Assembly (NCBI GenBank): GCA_963674595.2 | Contig: CAXXFV010000023.1 | Span: 640,001 to 704,000 of the forward strand | Length of the DNA: 64,000 bases | Source: a bacterium | GTDB taxonomy: Bacteria > Zhuqueibacterota > Zhuqueibacteria > Residuimicrobiales > Krinioviventaceae | Direction of reading: 5' to 3' | Shown here: positions 18,278-25,763 of the stretch, one piece after another | Numbering within the stretch: the stretch's first letter is position 1 | Layout: every line of letters starts with the position of its first letter | The notes under the pieces: model-generated | What the model was told of the DNA's origin: nothing | Databases searched by the model: none | Seen by the model: only the letters and a program-made list of their open reading frames with translations | Program-made: the position numbers and the translations under genes

Positions 18278-20935
18278 ATGGTTATGAATCAATTTATATT
18301 AAACTTGATGAATCAAGGTAAAAGTGACGGGCAAACCGGATTGTGGAATAAAGCCAAATCATTGGCTGGTAATTTTTCATTTAAATCAATCCTGTCAACA
18401 GAATCTAAATTATTTCAAAAGAATGTTGATGTGCCTTTGCCGGCACATATGGAAAATTTTACGGATGGACAGGAATTAAGTTTACGTGAATTTTTAAATG
18501 TTTCCAATATGTCCTCATCAAAGGCTTTGTTTCAAAAATTACAACTTTTAACAGAAACATCGACAAGTGACCAAAGTGATTTTCAAATAGTATCTGTTAA
18601 CCAGCTTGGTAATTTAAATGTAGCAGGACAAGCAAATGATTCAGGTTCTGTTCCGGCAATAAATCTGTTGTTAAAAAAATCTCAGCAGGTAAACAAGACA
18701 GAAAAAGGTTCTATAGCCGAACCAGCTACAAAACAATTTCAAGGTGTTCAAGAATCAGATTCTGATAATGTGTTGACATTACAAGCTGACGCAGAGCCTG
18801 TTGTAACAATCCCGACTGTTATTAATAATACTAGTATTAGCTCAAATGTCAAAGCAGTTGAAAATACAAAAATTGATAAACAAACAGTACCGGCAAAGGG
18901 CCAAGCTAAAACAGTAAAAGCGGATGGAAAAATTGTTACAAATCCGGTAGCTGAAAATGTCCAAAACAATGGTTTTGTTAAAACACAAAAAGTTAATCCG
19001 TCAAACCCGGCTGGTCCTGCACTCAGTTCTGATGTTAGTGAAAGTCAGGATGTCAAGTTACCAAAATCAAATACAACTCAAACTATAGTGATAAATAATC
19101 ACCCTGTTGTTGACGGTTCTGCAAATTCAGCGGATGTTAATGTAAAAGCTGCTGTGTCAGAAAAAAATACAAGTGCCGGAGCTGTTAAGAATTTTAAACA
19201 AATAAAGAAATCAGCGGAAAATTCTAAAAACGTTGTTCAATCTGATGAAACTAAAGAGACACTGAATAAAGCCGATTCAAATATAGTAGAAAATTTGAAA
19301 ACAAAACCAACCGATAATGCTATAAAAAATAATGTTAATACTTTTACACAAGTAAATACAAATAAAGAGTCTGTCACGGTTGACGATGTTGGTAATGTGA
19401 AACCTGTTGCAGAAAATGACGGTTCGCAACCGACTGTATTATCTGGCGATAATGTGTCAACGCCGGAAGATGGTAAAAAATCTAAAATAACTCTCGATGG
19501 TTTTAAAATTACCAATATGACAGACTCGGACGTGAAAAATTCGGCAGTTAATTTTGAAAAGTTTACAGCAACTGAAAAAATGGCTGATATTTTGCAAAGT
19601 TCAGATGTGAAGGTTAAAAATACTGCTCAATATAATGAGATAGATGTAAAAAAAGACGATTCTGTATACAAATCGGTTAAGGTAATGCAGCCAAAAGATA
19701 ACGACAACAAAAATCAAATTAATAAAAACGAAAATAATAATGTTTCAAAGCAGCACGTTAAAGGCTCTGTTTCCAACGAGCAGGGTTCTCAATCTGTTAA
19801 TACAACTTTAAAAATAGAACATGTTGAAAACACAATAAAGCAAGTAAATCAAAAAACTGATCAATCCTTTGTAGAACCTGAAGATAAAATTACCGCTAAA
19901 ATTTCTTCTAATCCAAATGTTGTGATAAGCAATACAGATAATGTAGTTGATAAAAAAGAACCTGTTCTCAAAGTCAGCACCGGTGTTGAGCAGAAAGAAA
20001 ATAAAGTTGATAACCATGCTTTTTTGATTGTTAAAGATAAAGTTGAAAAATATAAAGAAACGCAAAAGCAAGCCGGCGAAACTGTCAATAAAGCCAATCA
20101 GAAGGATGATGAAAAAATTTATATAAAACCCCATATTTTGGGTTTGGTTGGCAATAAAGAAAAAATCCAAAGTCGCGCTGATCATGTTGAAAAAGAACAA
20201 AATTCTGTAAACACTTTTCATGAAGAAAAAGGTGTATCTGAAAAATCCGGTTCAGCTAATAATTTTAATCAGCCAAATATGGGTCATAAGAACAACGGAA
20301 ATCACGATACTAATCAGCAACAACAAACAAAGACTGAAGCCGGTTCAGATAATTTTGGAAATTCGGTAAATAAAATTTCATCCGTATCGGCAGAAAAAAA
20401 TGAGGTTTTTCATATTGGCCGAGATCATCAAACAGTTGCTATGTCCGAGTCCGGTAAAGTGAGTGTTGCAAGTCATGGTGAGTCTGCTGATGTTAAAAAT
20501 GTTCAGGCCAACCTTAAAGTTCTTAATTCCTGGTTGTCGGATGGCGCCAAAATTATGGTTATGCAGGATGAAAAGTATTTTAATGTCCGTACTGAAATTA
20601 GTGATATTGGTAAATTGCATATCCAGATGCAGCAGGAAAAACAAAATGTTGAAGTTACTATTCGTGTAGAAAATGAACAATCAAAAGTCTATTTAGAACA
20701 ATCAGTACAAGAGCTTAAACAAAGTTTGGCACAAAAGGATATTGTTTTAACCCAGGTTCGGGTTTTAATTGGCGAAAAGGCAGATAGAGAGTTTTCAGGT
20801 CAATCACAATTTACCGAACGTAAGTGGCAGGATATTAAAAAACGCAAAAATGCAGAAATAACAATTGATGAAACCGATGCGACGGTTATTAGCCGAAAAA
20901 ATACAGCATGGTCAACCTATGAAACGGTTGCCTAA
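18278..20935 (+). CDS. fliK: Flagellar hook-length control protein FliK (885 aa)
   Basis: Long N/K/S/T/V-rich low-complexity region; C-terminal T3S4-like domain (IGKLHIQM..VEVTIRVEN..ELKQSLAQ); directly upstream of flgD. Confidence 0.82.
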   Translation: MVMNQFILNLMNQGKSDGQTGLWNKAKSLAGNFSFKSILSTESKLFQKNVDVPLPAHMENFTDGQELSLREFLNVSNMSSSKALFQKLQLLTETSTSDQSDFQIVSVNQLGNLNVAGQANDSGSVPAINLLLKKSQQVNKTEKGSIAEPATKQFQGVQESDSDNVLTLQADAEPVVTIPTVINNTSISSNVKAVENTKIDKQTVPAKGQAKTVKADGKIVTNPVAENVQNNGFVKTQKVNPSNPAGPALSSDVSESQDVKLPKSNTTQTIVINNHPVVDGSANSADVNVKAAVSEKNTSAGAVKNFKQIKKSAENSKNVVQSDETKETLNKADSNIVENLKTKPTDNAIKNNVNTFTQVNTNKESVTVDDVGNVKPVAENDGSQPTVLSGDNVSTPEDGKKSKITLDGFKITNMTDSDVKNSAVNFEKFTATEKMADILQSSDVKVKNTAQYNEIDVKKDDSVYKSVKVMQPKDNDNKNQINKNENNNVSKQHVKGSVSNEQGSQSVNTTLKIEHVENTIKQVNQKTDQSFVEPEDKITAKISSNPNVVISNTDNVVDKKEPVLKVSTGVEQKENKVDNHAFLIVKDKVEKYKETQKQAGETVNKANQKDDEKIYIKPHILGLVGNKEKIQSRADHVEKEQNSVNTFHEEKGVSEKSGSANNFNQPNMGHKNNGNHDTNQQQQTKTEAGSDNFGNSVNKISSVSAEKNEVFHIGRDHQTVAMSESGKVSVASHGESADVKNVQANLKVLNSWLSDGAKIMVMQDEKYFNVRTEISDIGKLHIQMQQEKQNVEVTIRVENEQSKVYLEQSVQELKQSLAQKDIVLTQVRVLIGEKADREFSGQSQFTERKWQDIKKRKNAEITIDETDATVISRKNTAWSTYETVA

Positions 20936-20946
20936 GGAGGAATGGA

Positions 20947-21612
20947 ATGTCAGTTTCTAGTGTAAGTTCAAACGCTTCTACCGCGTATTCAGCGGATGTT
21001 TATACAAACAGTGCCCTGGATAAAGAAGATTTTTTAGAATTACTGGTTACACAGCTTCAGTATCAAGATCCGTTGGAACCTGTGCAAAATACTGAATTTG
21101 TGGCTCAACTTGCACAATTTAGTTCATTAGAACAGTTAACAAACATAAATTCAACACTGGATAATAACACTACAGTTACTCAGTCTATGAATAACACGAT
21201 GCTTTCTTCTTTAATCGGACGTGATGTGAAAGCCTCCAGTAATGCGGTAAACCTGAATTCAGATAGTTCAACAACCATTTCATTTAATTTGTCAGAAGAT
21301 GCTGATGTTTATGTTGAACTTTATAATGAAGATGGCGACCTGGTTCGTACTTTGTCATGTGGTGAGATAAATTCCGGGCTCAATGAAATAGAATGGGATG
21401 GCAAGAGTTCTTCAGGTGCAAATTTAGAAGAGGGACAGTATTTTTGTAATATCGTTGCAAAGAATGCTGGCGGTGATTCTGTCTCGGCAACCCCCTTGTT
21501 AAAGGGTACGGTAACCGGTCTGCGGTTTGATAGTGGTACAACATATGTAATTATAGATAATGCAGAAATTGATCCAAGTTTGATTTATTATATTTCTGAA
21601 GATTTTAATTAA
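20947..21612 (+). CDS. flgD: Flagellar hook cap protein FlgD
   Basis: LDKEDFLELLVTQLQYQDPLEP..FVAQLAQFSSLEQ; FlgD Ig domain with WDGK. Confidence 0.96.
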   Translation: MSVSSVSSNASTAYSADVYTNSALDKEDFLELLVTQLQYQDPLEPVQNTEFVAQLAQFSSLEQLTNINSTLDNNTTVTQSMNNTMLSSLIGRDVKASSNAVNLNSDSSTTISFNLSEDADVYVELYNEDGDLVRTLSCGEINSGLNEIEWDGKSSSGANLEEGQYFCNIVAKNAGGDSVSATPLLKGTVTGLRFDSGTTYVIIDNAEIDPSLIYYISEDFN

Positions 21613-21634
21613 AAAAAAGTGTTTTTGAAAGGAG

Positions 21635-22039
21635 GTGAGAATATTGGCTGATCCGATTCATGAAGCGCAAAACATACAATCTATATCGCAAGCGCAGCGA
21701 CTAAAACGTACAAATGTGCCTTTGGGTAATAGTGATGCAACGAAATTTGATCAAATATTGCATCAGGAACAAACCCAATTGCAACGTGAAATAAAATTTT
21801 CACAACATGCTCAGTCAAGATTAGAAGAACGGAGTATTCAGATGAATGATCAGGACTATTTACGATTACAATCCGCCATACAAAAAATAAACGACAAAGG
21901 CGGAAAGGATTCATTGGTTTTGATGGATGACAGAGCTTTTGTTGTGAATGCGCCTAACCAAACTGTTATTACAGCAATGGATAGCGCAGCAATTAAAGAA
22001 AATGTTTTTACAAATATTGATAGTGCAATAATAATTTAA
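21635..22039 (+). CDS. Flagellar operon protein, TIGR02530 family
   Basis: KFSQHAQSRL..KGGKDSLVL..VVNAPNQTVITAMD..ENVFTNIDSAII; AAGGAG RBS with GTG start; between flgD and flgE. Confidence 0.9.
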   Translation: MRILADPIHEAQNIQSISQAQRLKRTNVPLGNSDATKFDQILHQEQTQLQREIKFSQHAQSRLEERSIQMNDQDYLRLQSAIQKINDKGGKDSLVLMDDRAFVVNAPNQTVITAMDSAAIKENVFTNIDSAIII

Positions 22040-22048
22040 CGCTGAAAC

Positions 22049-22100
22049 GGGCTGGACCCCTACGGGAGGCCCAAAGCTGTTGACTGACTGATACAGCTTT
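22049..22100 (+). ncRNA. Candidate structured cis-regulatory RNA (two adjacent hairpins) in the flgE leader
   Basis: GGGC-UGGA-CCC-CUAC-GGG-AG-GCCC (22049-72) abutting AAAGCUGU-UGACUGACUGAU-ACAGCUUU (22073-100); GC-rich island in an AT-rich spacer. Confidence 0.65.
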
Positions 22101-22130
22101 TAAGGCAAAAATAATAAAAGGAGTATTAAA

Positions 22131-24107
22131 ATGTTACGTTCATTGTTCTCTGGGGTCTCTGGAATGAAAAATCAACAGATCTCTATGGATGTTATTGGTA
22201 ATAATATAGCAAATGTAAATACAGTCGGCTTTAAGGCCAGTCGTGTAACTTTTCAGGAAAGTTTGTCTCAGGTTGTTCAAAATGGCCGAAGCTCTACTGA
22301 AAATCTCGGTGGAACCAATCCGATGAATGTTGGACTTGGTGTTAATGTAGCCAGTGTTGACAAATTGTTTACACAAGGTAATTTGGAACGCACCGGCAAT
22401 ACCATGGATTTGGCAATTGAAGGGGATGGATACTTTGTTTTGAGTAATGGAAATCAAGAGTTTTTTACCCGTGCAGGAAATCTGAATGTTGACAGCAATG
22501 GAAACCTTGTCCTGGGTAATACCGGTTATTATGTTCAGGGTAGGATGGCAGATTCTAATGGAGCCATTTCTTCTGCTGCTGAAATTCAAAACATTACATT
22601 GCCGTTTGGGCAAAAAGCTCCGGCAAAAGCAACAACAACGATTAGTTTTGAAGGTAACCTTAACTCAGAAACTGATCAAAAATCTCAGATTCTTGGTTCA
22701 GATTTTAGCAGTTATGCCGGTGTTACCAGTGCTGCTCTTGCTGTTCCGATTGATTTAACAGGTGCTAACGAATTAACAATTGCGGTTGATAATGATGCTG
22801 GTGGTACCATCACAGAAACATTAACTCTTACAGAAGCAAGCTATGGGACGGTTAGTGAGCTGGTTGCAGAAATTAATGGACAAATAAGTGGAAATACTTA
22901 TTTGACAGGTGAAGTGATTGCCGAGTTGGATGATTCCGGCGGTACGGACAAGATCGTTATCAGAACAACAGACACAGGTGGATCTGAGACAAATATTACA
23001 TTGTCCGGGTCAGCAACGACTCCGATTAGTCTTGGCACAACAACAGAATACGGTACTGCTTCAACAACACCTCTTGCGGATCTTTCATTTTTTGGAAGTG
23101 ATCTTAGTACTGGTGATCAGATTCGTATTAACGGTACCACATATCAAGGAGAAAGTGTTGCTGATGTTTATACCTATGCTGACGGCGATACGGTCCAGGA
23201 TTTATTAGATGCTATGAATTCAGTTTTCAGCGGAGCCTCAGTTACTTTAAGTAATGATGGTATGCTTAGAATTACGGATTCGGTTTCCGGTGAATCGAAA
23301 TCAACAGCAAATTTAATCTATATCGATAATGATACCGGTACATCATCTACATTACCTGTTTTTAATGTCACTCAGGAGGGTGTTGATGCAGGAACTCACT
23401 CGGCGAGCATGGTAACTTATGATAGTAAAGGTGAAGCTCATACTGTAACAATTAATTTTACAAATATATCATCTGAAGACGATGCAGATATTTGGCGATG
23501 GGAAGCTATTGTTGATGATAATGAAATTATTCCAAGTGCTGGCAACAGAGGCATCATCAAGTTTAATCCTAATGGTAGTTTAGCCTATTCGCAGTCTGAT
23601 GATGGTCAATCTTTAACTTTTGAGCCTGGTGACGGTGCCAGTACAATGGAAATCGTACTTGATGTTGGTACGGCCGGCTCTTTTACCGGAATTACCCAGC
23701 TTTCTAATCCCATGACAGCCGTTGCAACAAGTCATGACGGATACAGCATGGGTGATTTGTACAATATTTCATTTGATGAAACCGGAACAATTACCGGATA
23801 CTTTACAAATGGTGTAAGCCAGGAATTGGCACAGGTTGCATTGGCGACATTTAATAATCAGTCTGGTTTAAATCCTGTTGGAGAAAATGTATTTCAAGTT
23901 GGTAGCAACAGTGGACAGGCAGTAAAAGGTTGGGCCCAGAGTACAATCCCGGCCCAAATTACACCAAATTATCTTGAAATGTCTAATGTTGACTTGACTC
24001 AGGAATTTACCAATATGATCGTAGCCCAAAGAGGGTTCCAGGCAAATTCACGTGTTATTACCACTAGTGATACGCTGTTGCAGGAAGTGGTCAGATTAAA
24101 ACAATAA
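22131..24107 (+). CDS. flgE: Flagellar hook protein FlgE (658 aa, large central insertion)
   Basis: MLRSLFSGVSG..GNNIANVNTVGFK, DLAIEGDGYF, TRAGN, YDSKG, LEMSNVDLTQEFTNMIVAQRGFQAN. Confidence 0.96.
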   Translation: MLRSLFSGVSGMKNQQISMDVIGNNIANVNTVGFKASRVTFQESLSQVVQNGRSSTENLGGTNPMNVGLGVNVASVDKLFTQGNLERTGNTMDLAIEGDGYFVLSNGNQEFFTRAGNLNVDSNGNLVLGNTGYYVQGRMADSNGAISSAAEIQNITLPFGQKAPAKATTTISFEGNLNSETDQKSQILGSDFSSYAGVTSAALAVPIDLTGANELTIAVDNDAGGTITETLTLTEASYGTVSELVAEINGQISGNTYLTGEVIAELDDSGGTDKIVIRTTDTGGSETNITLSGSATTPISLGTTTEYGTASTTPLADLSFFGSDLSTGDQIRINGTTYQGESVADVYTYADGDTVQDLLDAMNSVFSGASVTLSNDGMLRITDSVSGESKSTANLIYIDNDTGTSSTLPVFNVTQEGVDAGTHSASMVTYDSKGEAHTVTINFTNISSEDDADIWRWEAIVDDNEIIPSAGNRGIIKFNPNGSLAYSQSDDGQSLTFEPGDGASTMEIVLDVGTAGSFTGITQLSNPMTAVATSHDGYSMGDLYNISFDETGTITGYFTNGVSQELAQVALATFNNQSGLNPVGENVFQVGSNSGQAVKGWAQSTIPAQITPNYLEMSNVDLTQEFTNMIVAQRGFQANSRVITTSDTLLQEVVRLKQ

Positions 24108-24236: not shown

Positions 24237-24992
24237 ATGGATTTAGCTACTTTAATAGGCATAGGTTTAGGTATATTTTTACTCGGCGCCTCGATATTTA
24301 CTCAAGAGGGTTGGATTTTCTTTTTTAACCTCCCCGCATTTTTAATCGTCGGTGGTGGTACAATTGCAGCCACACTTGTTAATTTTCCATTAAAAGATGT
24401 ATTAGGCGTAATTAAAGTTGCAAGAAACGCATTTCAACAAAAAGTAATGTCGATTTTTGATGCAATTGAATTTTGGAGCGATATTGCCCGAACTGCAAGA
24501 CAACAAGGTTTATTGGCTTTGGAAGATAAGACCCAGGAAATTGATGACGAGTTTACTCGAAAAGGGATTCAGTTGATGGTTGATCAGGTTGATCAGGAAA
24601 TATTAGCCAGTATTTTAAATACTGAAGTATACTATATTCAGGAAAGACATGAAATCGGTCAAAAAATATTCAAGGCTATGGGAGCGTATGCTCCTGCTTT
24701 TGGAATGGTTGGAACGCTTATTGGTCTGATCCAAATGCTTCAAAGTTTAAATGATCCTACACAGATTGGTGTTGGTATGGCAACTGCTTTGGTTACCACC
24801 CTTTATGGTGCCGTGTTTGCCAACTTGCTTTTTTTACCTCTTGCCGGTAAATTGGAAACTCGATCAGATCAGGAAATGCAAAACAAACAATTGGTCATGC
24901 TGGCTATTCAGTCCATCCAGGCAGGTGACAATCCCAGGTTGTTAAATGAAAAACTAATGACCTTTATCGCGCCTGCAAGCCGTGAGGAATAA
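24237..24992 (+). CDS. motA: Flagellar stator A subunit (MotA/PomA/MotP type)
   Basis: MDLATLIG, GLLALE, APAFGMVGTLIGLIQML, MATALVTTLYG. Confidence 0.93.
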   Translation: MDLATLIGIGLGIFLLGASIFTQEGWIFFFNLPAFLIVGGGTIAATLVNFPLKDVLGVIKVARNAFQQKVMSIFDAIEFWSDIARTARQQGLLALEDKTQEIDDEFTRKGIQLMVDQVDQEILASILNTEVYYIQERHEIGQKIFKAMGAYAPAFGMVGTLIGLIQMLQSLNDPTQIGVGMATALVTTLYGAVFANLLFLPLAGKLETRSDQEMQNKQLVMLAIQSIQAGDNPRLLNEKLMTFIAPASREE

Positions 24993-25001
24993 TCAATTAT
25001 C

Positions 25002-25763
25002 ATGAGTGCTCCTGTAAAAAAACAAAAAAAAGCTGAAGAAGGTTCACCATTATGGATGGCGACTTTTTCTGATTTGATGTCTTTATTGTTGACATTTTTC
25101 ATTTTAATTGTTTCCTTTTCAACAACAGAGATTATCAAGTTTCGAAAATTTATGGGAGCTATGCGCGGTGCCACAGGATCTATTTTAGAGCAGCAAGGAG
25201 CTCGTATCATTCCAAGCAAATTTTCTCCTGATCACGGTGTGACTATGGAAATGGATGTTTTGGTTGATCTTGTTAATAAAATGATGCAGGACCTCCCACA
25301 TGAAATGGGTGAGTTTGAAAATTTTGAAAGTGAAGTTAGTATAGATGCCACAAACGAAGGTATTCGTTTTCGCATTTCAAGTCTAGTATTGTTTGAGCCT
25401 GGTCAGGCCGTTTTGAAACCAAACGGTTATAAATTATTAAGCCATATAGCACGAATTGTGAAAAAGGTAAATTGTTATGTTCGAATTGAAGGCCATACAG
25501 ACAATATGCCGATACACACAGCGCAATATCCGTCGAATTGGGACCTGTCAACAGACCGTTCACTGAATGTGCTAAAATATTTTGCAAATAGCTGTTACCT
25601 GAATCCCTATAAATTGATTGCTGTCGGCAGAGGTGAGTATGACCCAATTGCACCTAATGATACGCCTGAAAATCGTAAAAAAAATCGAAGAGTTGATATT
25701 CACTTAAAATGGTATGATGAAACCGGTAAGCAACTTTTGGAAGAACGAAATGGAACATACTAG
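25002..25763 (+). CDS. motB: Flagellar stator B subunit (PomB/MotS-like)
   Basis: WMATFSDLMSLLLTFFILI TM with conserved Asp; OmpA-like EGHTD, SNWDLS..R, NRRVDI. Confidence 0.93.
   Translation: MSAPVKKQKKAEEGSPLWMATFSDLMSLLLTFFILIVSFSTTEIIKFRKFMGAMRGATGSILEQQGARIIPSKFSPDHGVTMEMDVLVDLVNKMMQDLPHEMGEFENFESEVSIDATNEGIRFRISSLVLFEPGQAVLKPNGYKLLSHIARIVKKVNCYVRIEGHTDNMPIHTAQYPSNWDLSTDRSLNVLKYFANSCYLNPYKLIAVGRGEYDPIAPNDTPENRKKNRRVDIHLKWYDETGKQLLEERNGTY

Follow-up and report, generated by a model that had tools for sequence, protein, structure and literature searches.

Regulation of a flagellar axial protein through its mRNA leader is known from CsrA/FliW and the hag leader, a protein-bound leader with GGA sites near the Shine-Dalgarno (SD) sequence, which couples assembly to translation. 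Two GGA sites are the usual CsrA arrangement, as seen in the Bacillus subtilis hag leader. A second described RNA, Termite-flg (RF01729), is a candidate cis-regulatory structured RNA that has been placed in the 5' leaders of flagellar genes. This placement is not confirmed by the main text of the report that lists it, from termite hind-gut metagenomes only, in which flagella are not mentioned (Weinberg et al. 2010, PMC2864571). Here we analyzed a window of 64,000 nucleotides (nt) from a bacterium of the phylum Zhuqueibacterota (assembly GCA_963674595.2, contig CAXXFV010000023.1, positions 640,001 to 704,000 of the forward strand), in which a two-hairpin RNA element lies in the spacer between a gene of the TIGR02530 family and flgE, the hook protein gene. 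TIGR02530 is a widely distributed flagellar-operon gene, and a passage of a 2026 flagellar survey enters it, under its Pfam name Flagellar_put, as "function unknown" (PMC13277936).

The element has a defined and conserved structure, it is strictly co-distributed with the TIGR02530 family, and it also occurs in copies unlinked to that gene. We judge the chances to be evenly balanced that it is a cis-acting leader RNA on the mRNAs of flagellar axial proteins, widely conserved and so far not catalogued, which is read by TIGR02530. Searches of the open-access literature and bioRxiv found no description of the RNA, of its pairing with TIGR02530 or of the function of the protein. One candidate report on the spacer, dealing with B. 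subtilis intergenic mutations, was set aside, as the mutations in the relevant part of its text concern cspB and the fla/che promoter (PMC4526659).

Structure and conservation of the two-hairpin element

The spacer extends from the TAA stop codon of the TIGR02530 gene (22037-22039) to the ATG of flgE and measures 91 nt (22040-22130). A preliminary description of this DNA had located two hairpins here, 9 nt after the stop and about 18 nt before the flgE ribosome-binding site, the second with a 12-nt loop of GA repeats, and the sequence bears out these positions. Hairpin 1 (HP1, 22049-22072, plus strand) starts 9 nt past the stop and reads GGGCU / GGA / CCC / cuac / GGG / A / GGCCC, with a basal stem (22049-22053/22068-22072), a GGA (22054-22056) opposite A 22067, an apical stem (22057-22059/22064-22066) and a loop (22060-22063). 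Hairpin 2 (HP2, 22073-22100, plus strand) abuts HP1 without a gap and ends about 18 nt 5' of the SD sequence AAGGAG; its 5' arm AAAGCUGU and 3' arm ACAGCUUU form the stem 22073-22080/22093-22100 and close the 12-nt loop UGACUGACUGAU (22081-22092, plus strand), which carries GA at loop positions 2-3, 6-7 and 10-11.

The core (22045-22105) folds as exactly HP1 plus HP2 at -20.7 kcal/mol (z = -2.65, equaled by 0 of 200 shuffles). Folded alone, HP2 gives z = -2.96 and HP1 is unremarkable (z = -0.84). In the minimum-energy fold of the whole 91-nt spacer, HP1 is retained and the HP2 region re-pairs, with z = -1.5 to -1.8, which is not significant. Because the whole-spacer fold is no better than shuffles, thermodynamics alone is weak evidence, and the argument against chance rests on comparison, namely on a unique model match in the genome and on compensatory changes across related spacers. 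In the whole-spacer fold, the 3' arm of HP2 is engaged by the SD region; we rejected such an anti-SD switch as a conserved mechanism because, by inspection, the HP2 arm covaries freely while the SD sequence is constant.

For the comparison we built a covariance model, R1, from the eight closest spacers. Searched against the 6.6-Mb genome of the window, R1 gave one match only, at the spacer (74.3 bits, E = 1e-17). Among 167 genomes from the phylum of the window, 52 have TIGR02530; a spacer of 79 to 404 nt follows the gene in all 52 loci, flgE comes next in all 51 whose contig continues, and R1 matched 52 of the 52 spacers at E <= 2.8e-4. For other phyla we sampled TIGR02530 relatives with one genome per species and used the best 80 of 566 confirmed stretches. 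By record title, these include Ignavibacteria/Bacteroidota metagenome-assembled genomes (MAGs), Syntrophomonadaceae, Peptococcaceae, Lachnospiraceae/Roseburia, Halanaerobiales, Brevibacillus, Geothermobacter, Fuchsiella, Fibrobacteres, Cloacimonadota, Calditrichia and Bdellovibrionota. R1 matched the element directly after the gene in 76 of these 80 loci at E < 1 (66 at E <= 0.001), and in the four misses (two Fibrobacteres, two MAGs), whose HP1 or HP2 is longer, the element is recognizable by eye, which brings the count to 80 of 80. The preliminary description had mentioned similar leaders in Firmicutes; this occurrence is confirmed, and the element extends far beyond that group.

The element is a conserved structured RNA. 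Across 72 model-aligned sequences, 95.4% of cells pair and changes on both sides are seen in 14 of 16 pairs; the covariation score is 0.676, compared with 0.22 for shuffled alignments (0 of 500 reach 0.676) and at most 0.10 with the partners slid. This alignment is fitted to the structure; RNAalifold on a plain, unfitted MAFFT alignment of eight sequences gave the same two hairpins. The conservation and covariation anticipated by the preliminary description are thereby borne out. Rfam 15, which includes Termite-flg (RF01729) and flg-Rhizobiales (RF01736), gave no match in the spacer at E <= 10 (window 21000-23000) and, for 20 diverse loci searched at E <= 1, none at the element; an existing Rfam family would have spoken against the preliminary description.

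In HP1, the basal helix is 98.6% paired with compensatory changes in four of five pairs, and helix 2 is 100% paired (72 sequences). The consensus consists of the basal stem, G-C, C-G, a freely covarying pair, GG(A) opposite a single A, and two or three C-G pairs, above which the apical part varies from 3 to about 50 nt; the GGA reads GGC or GGU in several sequences. The preliminary description had found the internal loop, UGGA/AG, compatible with tandem sheared G-A pairs. This part has to be given up: the U and the G of these motifs covary as a pair (U-A 20, C-G 14, U-G 14, A-U 10 and G-C 10 of 72), and because this flanking position is paired, the internal loop is 5'-GGA-3' opposite a single A. 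We also considered a kink-turn, which has a 3-nt bulge followed by tandem G-A/A-G pairs, and rejected it, since by inspection HP1 has a single A opposite GGA and a covarying Watson-Crick pair at the next position.

HP2 has a stem of 6 to 8 bp in which every pair covaries, with compensatory changes in eight of eight stem pairs among the 72 sequences. Its loop follows N-GA-(A/C)(U/C)-GA-NN-GA-N, exactly 12 nt with at least five closing pairs, in 117 of 132 loci, and loop position 5 is always a pyrimidine. The remaining 15 loci all retain HP1; three have the strict loop with four closing pairs, several have loops longer or shorter by 1 nt, and others, including the Halanaerobiales type, have shortened or degenerate HP2 loops. 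Measured over 116 loci, the loop stands a median of 38 nt away from the ATG (interquartile range 32-47). In spacers of at least 150 nt, the element lies beside flgE, not beside the TIGR02530 stop, in 8 of 10 cases.

A GC-rich hairpin pair between two genes may also act as an intrinsic terminator or attenuator, by which less transcription from the early flagellar genes would continue into flgE, and in the window genome a UUUU does follow HP2 (22100-22103, overlapping the last U of the stem), as it does, among the eight close relatives, in G015 and G008. However, the terminator scan finds no site in the spacer, the U run is absent from five of the eight closest relatives (present in three), and a 12-nt loop is atypical. 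In addition, flgE has no promoter of its own here, its product is required in greater quantity than those of the genes before it, and other copies of the element stand in 5' leaders right after putative promoters. We therefore did not class the element as an intrinsic terminator, a reading to which we attach hardly any credence, in line with the non-terminator character noted in the preliminary description.

Co-distribution of the element with TIGR02530

A second covariance model, R2, was used for genome-wide scans. In 151 phylum genomes it gave 51 matches, one per genome, of which 50 lie at the TIGR02530 locus. The other (genome G065, 31.7 bits, L170:2970-3020) is a false positive inside a 1258-amino-acid (aa) open reading frame (ORF) of a non-flagellated genome, and it gauges the false-positive level of R2 at about E = 2e-4 per genome. 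Within the phylum, six flagellated genomes are without TIGR02530; R1 searched against five of them gave only chance-level matches on other contigs, and in the three with an assembled region upstream of flgE, flgD is followed by flgE across 60-80 nt with no element.

The class Bacilli provides a larger comparison, with 151 genomes, of which 113 are flagellated and 61 carry TIGR02530 over the family cut-off. The element is present in 61 of these 61 genomes (60 by the model, G372 by eye) and in 0 of the 52 other flagellated ones, which have no TIGR02530 match over the cut-off; it is clearly not equally common where TIGR02530 is absent, the outcome that would have spoken against the preliminary description. 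CsrA occurs in 92 of the 151 genomes, and 33 CsrA-positive flagellated genomes have neither TIGR02530 nor the element. Because of the 61/61 against 0/52 and of these 33 genomes, we conclude that the distribution of the element follows TIGR02530, not flagella or CsrA. Two element-positive Bacilli genomes (G313, G384) have no CsrA match.

Divergent TIGR02530 homologues scoring 60-73 bits, below the cut-off, were seen in eight of the 151 Bacilli genomes, also before flgE, with open frames reaching up to 265 aa upstream. Among four of them (G421, G364, G433, G408), three spacers keep only a hairpin with N-GA-NN-GA-NN-GA-N and no HP1, and one has neither hairpin. The opposite case was met in a clostridial-class lineage (G243, L231), where HP1 stands right at the TIGR02530 stop and the loop of the second hairpin is GCAAAGCAAA, free of GA repeats.

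These data bear directly on another explanation, in which the element is a real leader RNA with a different partner, such as CsrA, a ribosomal protein, RNase Y/J or a part of the flagellar export apparatus, and TIGR02530 is an unrelated, co-inherited hook-assembly protein. CsrA is a candidate, given the conserved GGA in HP1, a second GGA in the flgE SD sequence, and one flagellin copy of the element (L172) that lies directly 3' of fliW-csrA. On the other hand, its distribution departs from that of the element in both directions, as the 33 genomes above and G313 and G384 demonstrate, the GGA sits in an internal rather than an apical loop and is GGC or GGU in several sequences, and the GA-repeat loop contains no GGA in most sequences. 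With presence independent of CsrA and the GGA outside an apical hairpin loop, we did not class the element as a CsrA binding site. For any partner other than TIGR02530, moreover, the BECR-type signature of the TIGR02530 protein described below would have to be a coincidence. Overall, we regard a different partner as unlikely.

Copies unlinked to the TIGR02530 gene

In both Thermosyntropha lipolytica and Fuchsiella alkaliacetigena, a second copy of the element stands directly 5' of flgG, without an adjoining TIGR02530 gene. In the clostridial class of T. lipolytica, the element occurs in 88 of 125 genomes, typically in two copies and in up to five, and TIGR02530 in 90 of 125 (both in 80, element only in 8, gene only in 10, neither in 27). 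Five of the eight element-only genomes were examined: in three, flgE is cut by the contig end, and in two no flgE was found. Of the ten gene-only genomes one was examined, the above-described G243.

To sample the off-locus copies, we took the first 40 listed away from a TIGR02530 gene, excluding those already retrieved. Thirty-seven of them lie 12-43 nt 5' of a flgG-type ORF of 258-264 aa (one cut at 176 aa), two precede flagellin, and one precedes a flgE-like gene. The FlgG equivalog cut-off was reached by two of two ORFs tested from the 40, as well as by two further flgG-type ORFs outside the 40. Just 5' of 9 of the 40 copies a pattern search found a sigma-28-like TAAA-N15-CGATA box, a putative promoter, and further copies show it by eye; many copies stand 19-29 nt behind such a putative sigma-28-type box. 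In three genomes with four or five copies, the extra ones lead flagellin, sometimes with an intervening 90-105-aa ORF, or an unnamed 90-98-aa ORF.

Copies at such a distance from the TIGR02530 gene imply that the element is read by a factor acting in trans, and the targets of this trans-acting reader are high-copy axial subunits. The preliminary description had seen a module of the hook gene; the element is indeed a flgE leader, and its restriction to flgE does not stand, for it leads flgG, flagellin and a further flgE-like gene far from TIGR02530 as well.

Several individual copies have particular surroundings. In L172 and L182 (genomes G180 and G181) the order is element, 90-105-aa ORF, flagellin, with fliW-like and csrA genes directly upstream in L172. 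The copies in L174 and L181 lead a 90-98-aa ORF that starts MT(I/Y)IQT and could be FlgM-like, and a selenocysteine tRNA gene (Rfam tRNA-Sec, 74.5 bits; L174:2138-2232) lies about 1 kb from one copy. In L177 (G182), the copy starts at a flgG-like stop codon and a 251-aa, unrelated-looking ORF follows 50 nt on, so this one may be a 3' element and not a leader.

A position close to the predicted 5' ends of sigma-28-type transcripts and a distance of 30-45 nt from the start codon are also what a protein-free element would show, be it a 5'-proximal stabilizer, an enhancer of translation, a standby site, or a sensor of temperature or of a small ligand, and stable hairpins near the 5' end are mRNA stabilizers in Bacillus. 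We consider this rather improbable. A mere stabilizer needs no invariant unpaired nucleotides, whereas HP1 has the GG and the A, and HP2 the three GA and the pyrimidine at position 5; the element is missing in 52 of 52 flagellated Bacilli genomes without TIGR02530; and inspection reveals no conserved alternative pairing with the SD sequence.

Predicted fold and conserved residues of the TIGR02530 protein

The full-length model of the window protein has a predicted local distance difference test (pLDDT) score of 81, with the N-terminal 30 residues disordered. A core model of residues 50-134, for which 40 sequences of many phyla were used, has a pLDDT of 94.2 and consists of a short helix, a long helix, three strands and a terminal strand (H8-16, H23-38, E43-48, E51-56, E61-67, E81-84). 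Nine positions are invariant in the 40 sequences: S56, H58, R62, R66, G89, L94, T113, I128 and D129. The first helix, a predicted pre-alpha helix FSQHAQSRLEER (codons 21806..21832, plus strand; residues 57-65 in the models), goes with S56, H58, R62 and R66; H58, R62 and R66 are placed on it, and I128 and D129 lie just before the last strand (E130-133).

This arrangement recalls the BECR fold's Colicin-like branch. According to the part of a recent preprint that treats this branch, its topology is a pre-alpha helix, an alpha helix and four strands, a conserved His and basic residues make up an active site shared between the pre-alpha helix and the last strand, tRNA loops are what most of the known members cut, and DUF4258 belongs to it (bioRxiv 10.64898/2026.08.28.747851). 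DUF4258 is described, in a passage of another study, as an uncharacterized BECR-fold toxin family (PMC11980606). The main texts of these two papers do not mention flagella. The TIGR02530 core model and its invariant residues fit both the Colicin-like topology and the placement of the His and basic residues, and we rate a Colicin-like BECR fold for TIGR02530 as probable, though short of established.

Sequence comparison points weakly the same way. Of 36 family members, 22 gave weak matches to Pfam DUF4258, none of which reaches the cut-off (best E = 5.9e-4); the window protein itself scores 12.3 bits against DUF4258 (PF14076), for which the gathering cut-off is 25, so TIGR02530 is not a member and at most a distant relative. 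The other weak Pfam matches among the 36 were RegB (REGB_T4) in two, at E = 0.14, and PBECR1 in one. With hhalign, TIGR02530 aligned to 18 DUF4258 proteins from the relatives' genomes at a probability of 85% and E = 6.2e-6, over the N-terminal 41 columns only, and the alignment sets FSxHAxxR on the invariant His of DUF4258. In the structure comparison by VIA-align, the top 14 rows are all RelE/ParE/HigB/YafQ/Cami1 toxins, with 64-75 of 85 residues aligned and Z of 5.8-4.8, under the tool's noise guide of 7-8; a second comparison gave a similar ranking. Foldseek against the PDB gave no match at E <= 0.001 with either model, and its top rows (uL18-type ribosomal proteins, E about 0.2) were not used. 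PDB sequence searches with the protein, its profile and the DUF4258 profile returned nothing relevant, and the ESM Atlas search returned only TIGR02530's own family. The fold prediction thus speaks for the RNase-type topology that would suit the RNA-binding or processing role suggested in the preliminary description, though its scores are weak by every measure.

In addition, megaphage G is reported, in a portion of a preprint, to have a TIGR02530-related protein, ps41/gp136 (bioRxiv 10.1101/2024.12.16.628780). Such a relative would agree with an origin of the family among phage-associated BECR proteins.

Genes around the element in the window

The element stands within a run of flagellar genes that includes a FliK-like gene (18278-20935). 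Directly 5' of the module is flgD, the hook cap/assembly protein gene (20947..21612, plus strand; best E with NCBIfam FlgD models = 1.7e-45). The TIGR02530 gene (21635..22039, plus strand) scores 115.7 bits against a cut-off of 83.2 and carries the PF12611 C-terminal motif (E = 2.7e-12); its score over the NCBIfam cut-off and its position between flgD and flgE make it a member of the family. Its true start is likely TTG 21644 rather than the listed GTG 21635, because the GTG overlaps AGGAGG 21630-21635 and the TTG is in frame, 8 nt past it. The SD sequence of flgE (AAGGAG 22118-22123, plus strand) stands 7 nt 5' of the ATG at 22131, and flgE itself (22131..24107, plus strand, 658 aa), the gene led by the element, matches NCBIfam FlgE models (best E = 1.6e-112) and TIGR03506 (265.9 bits). 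The run continues with motA (24237-24992) and motB (25002-25763). A csrA gene (82.1 bits) also belongs to this flagellar region, at contig positions 706346-706522, about 2.3 kb past the end of the window. Metatranscriptome contigs from two sets (shares 0.08 and 0.05), compared with 21000-23500, gave three short pieces within flgD/flgE and none over the spacer, which is uninformative either way.

Proposed function of the element

According to the above-described analysis, invariant unpaired nucleotides, a distribution locked to one protein family and a predicted, conserved RNase-type pocket together argue for a dedicated protein-RNA pair. In the mechanism that we regard as the most likely, the element would always lead flgE and, in some lineages, flgG and flagellin too. 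HP1 would offer the conserved GG(A)/A internal loop clamped by G-C pairs, and HP2 the 12-nt loop in which GA recurs three times, every 4 nt, roughly 30-45 nt 5' of the start codon and at the 5' edge of the ribosome-binding region. TIGR02530 would be a domesticated Colicin-like/DUF4258-like BECR protein that retains the His/Arg pocket of this RNase class; it would recognize the leader and perhaps cut in or beside the element, or else clamp it. In this way it would determine the 5' end of the flgE, flgG and flagellin mRNAs, which encode high-copy subunits, or their stability or translation. A control of initiation or of 5'-end-dependent decay would agree with the location of the element at the 5' edge of the ribosome-binding region.

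The steps of this mechanism differ in strength. That TIGR02530 is the partner of the element seems to us somewhat better than an even chance, and the predicted BECR signature lends weak independent support to its binding or processing RNA. That it cleaves the element, rather than only binding it, is a doubtful though real possibility. A further extension, in which TIGR02530, as a BECR endoribonuclease or RNA clamp reading a dedicated leader on rod, hook and filament mRNAs, is itself exported through the type III gate via its disordered N terminus, is a long shot. If it held, the assembly state would set the processing and translation of the next axial subunits, forming an RNA-level checkpoint parallel to FlgM/sigma-28 and FliW/CsrA; such a checkpoint would be ancient, because it would be common to Bacillota, Ignavibacteria/Bacteroidota, Desulfuromonadia-type bacteria, Bdellovibrionota, Fibrobacterota and other lineages.

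Several observations weigh against TIGR02530 as the reader of the element. Most copies adjoin its gene, so that co-occurrence is expected whatever the function and could be plain genetic linkage, because one deletion removes the spacer element and the gene together. The clostridial class also contains the 8 element-only and 10 TIGR02530-only genomes among its 125. HP1 and HP2 are separately lost in some lineages, which means that the two hairpins may have different partners, and the window genome does encode CsrA; these points suit a leader with another partner. In front of flagellin, the copies are separated from the start codon by 147-249 nt, a poor fit to a simple occlusion model. Finally, the BECR measures, including the sub-threshold DUF4258 score of the window protein, the 41-column hhalign coverage, the VIA-align Z value and the Foldseek result, are each weak, though mutually consistent.

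For a widely distributed flagellar-operon gene, the result provides a concrete and cheaply testable hypothesis, with a well-delimited RNA of 60 nt, four or five residues that do not vary, and the predicted targets flgE, flgG and flagellin as handles. It bears, outside the enterobacterial models, on how about a hundred hook subunits come from a gene within a long operon of low-copy components, and it adds a structured RNA class from many phyla that is missing in Rfam 15. Gut Lachnospiraceae and Roseburia carry the module, which is thus relevant to flagellin expression in commensals. If the proposed pairing is true, TIGR02530 would be the first BECR toxin-type fold recruited to flagellar gene control within the literature searched.

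Comparison with known systems

As for flagellar leaders, the present element shares with the hag leader its place on axial-protein mRNAs, but it tracks TIGR02530 and not CsrA, carries its GGA in an internal loop, and has a second hairpin with GA repeats instead of GGA. Termite-flg resembles it as a candidate cis-regulatory structured RNA; the Rfam model of Termite-flg gives no match (spacer, E <= 10; 20 loci, E <= 1), which still leaves room for a distant kinship.

On the protein side, the Colicin-like BECR RNases (colicin D/E5, CdiA-CT, DUF4258/Ntox49) share the predicted topology and the placement of His and basic residues with TIGR02530. Characterized members cut tRNA hairpin loops with high specificity, as stated in a passage on this branch (bioRxiv 10.64898/2026.08.28.747851). 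These BECR proteins serve as toxins in conflicts and are accompanied by immunity or antitoxin proteins, whereas TIGR02530 is a flgD-flgE operon protein of many phyla with a disordered N-terminal extension. Phage T4 RegB, a candidate parallel, uses a RelE/BECR-type fold for mRNA control and not as a toxin. RegB cuts GGAG in ribosome-binding regions. Its similarity to TIGR02530 is weak (2 of 36 members, E = 0.14; Z 3.5-3.8), and it has no dedicated structured RNA element.

The proposed arrangement, a small endoribonuclease encoded beside the structured RNA that it recognizes, has analogues in Cas6/Csy4 and in the type III toxin-antitoxin system ToxIN. Those systems have different folds and tandem-repeat RNAs, while the present element is a single leader per mRNA, with unlinked extra copies in the flagellar regulon. 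The GA repeats, for their part, recall the TRAP and HutP sites, in which short repeated purine motifs at a fixed period are read by one protein. The TRAP/HutP repeats are triplets at 5-7 nt, whereas the present element displays three GA dinucleotides at a 4-nt period within one hairpin loop.

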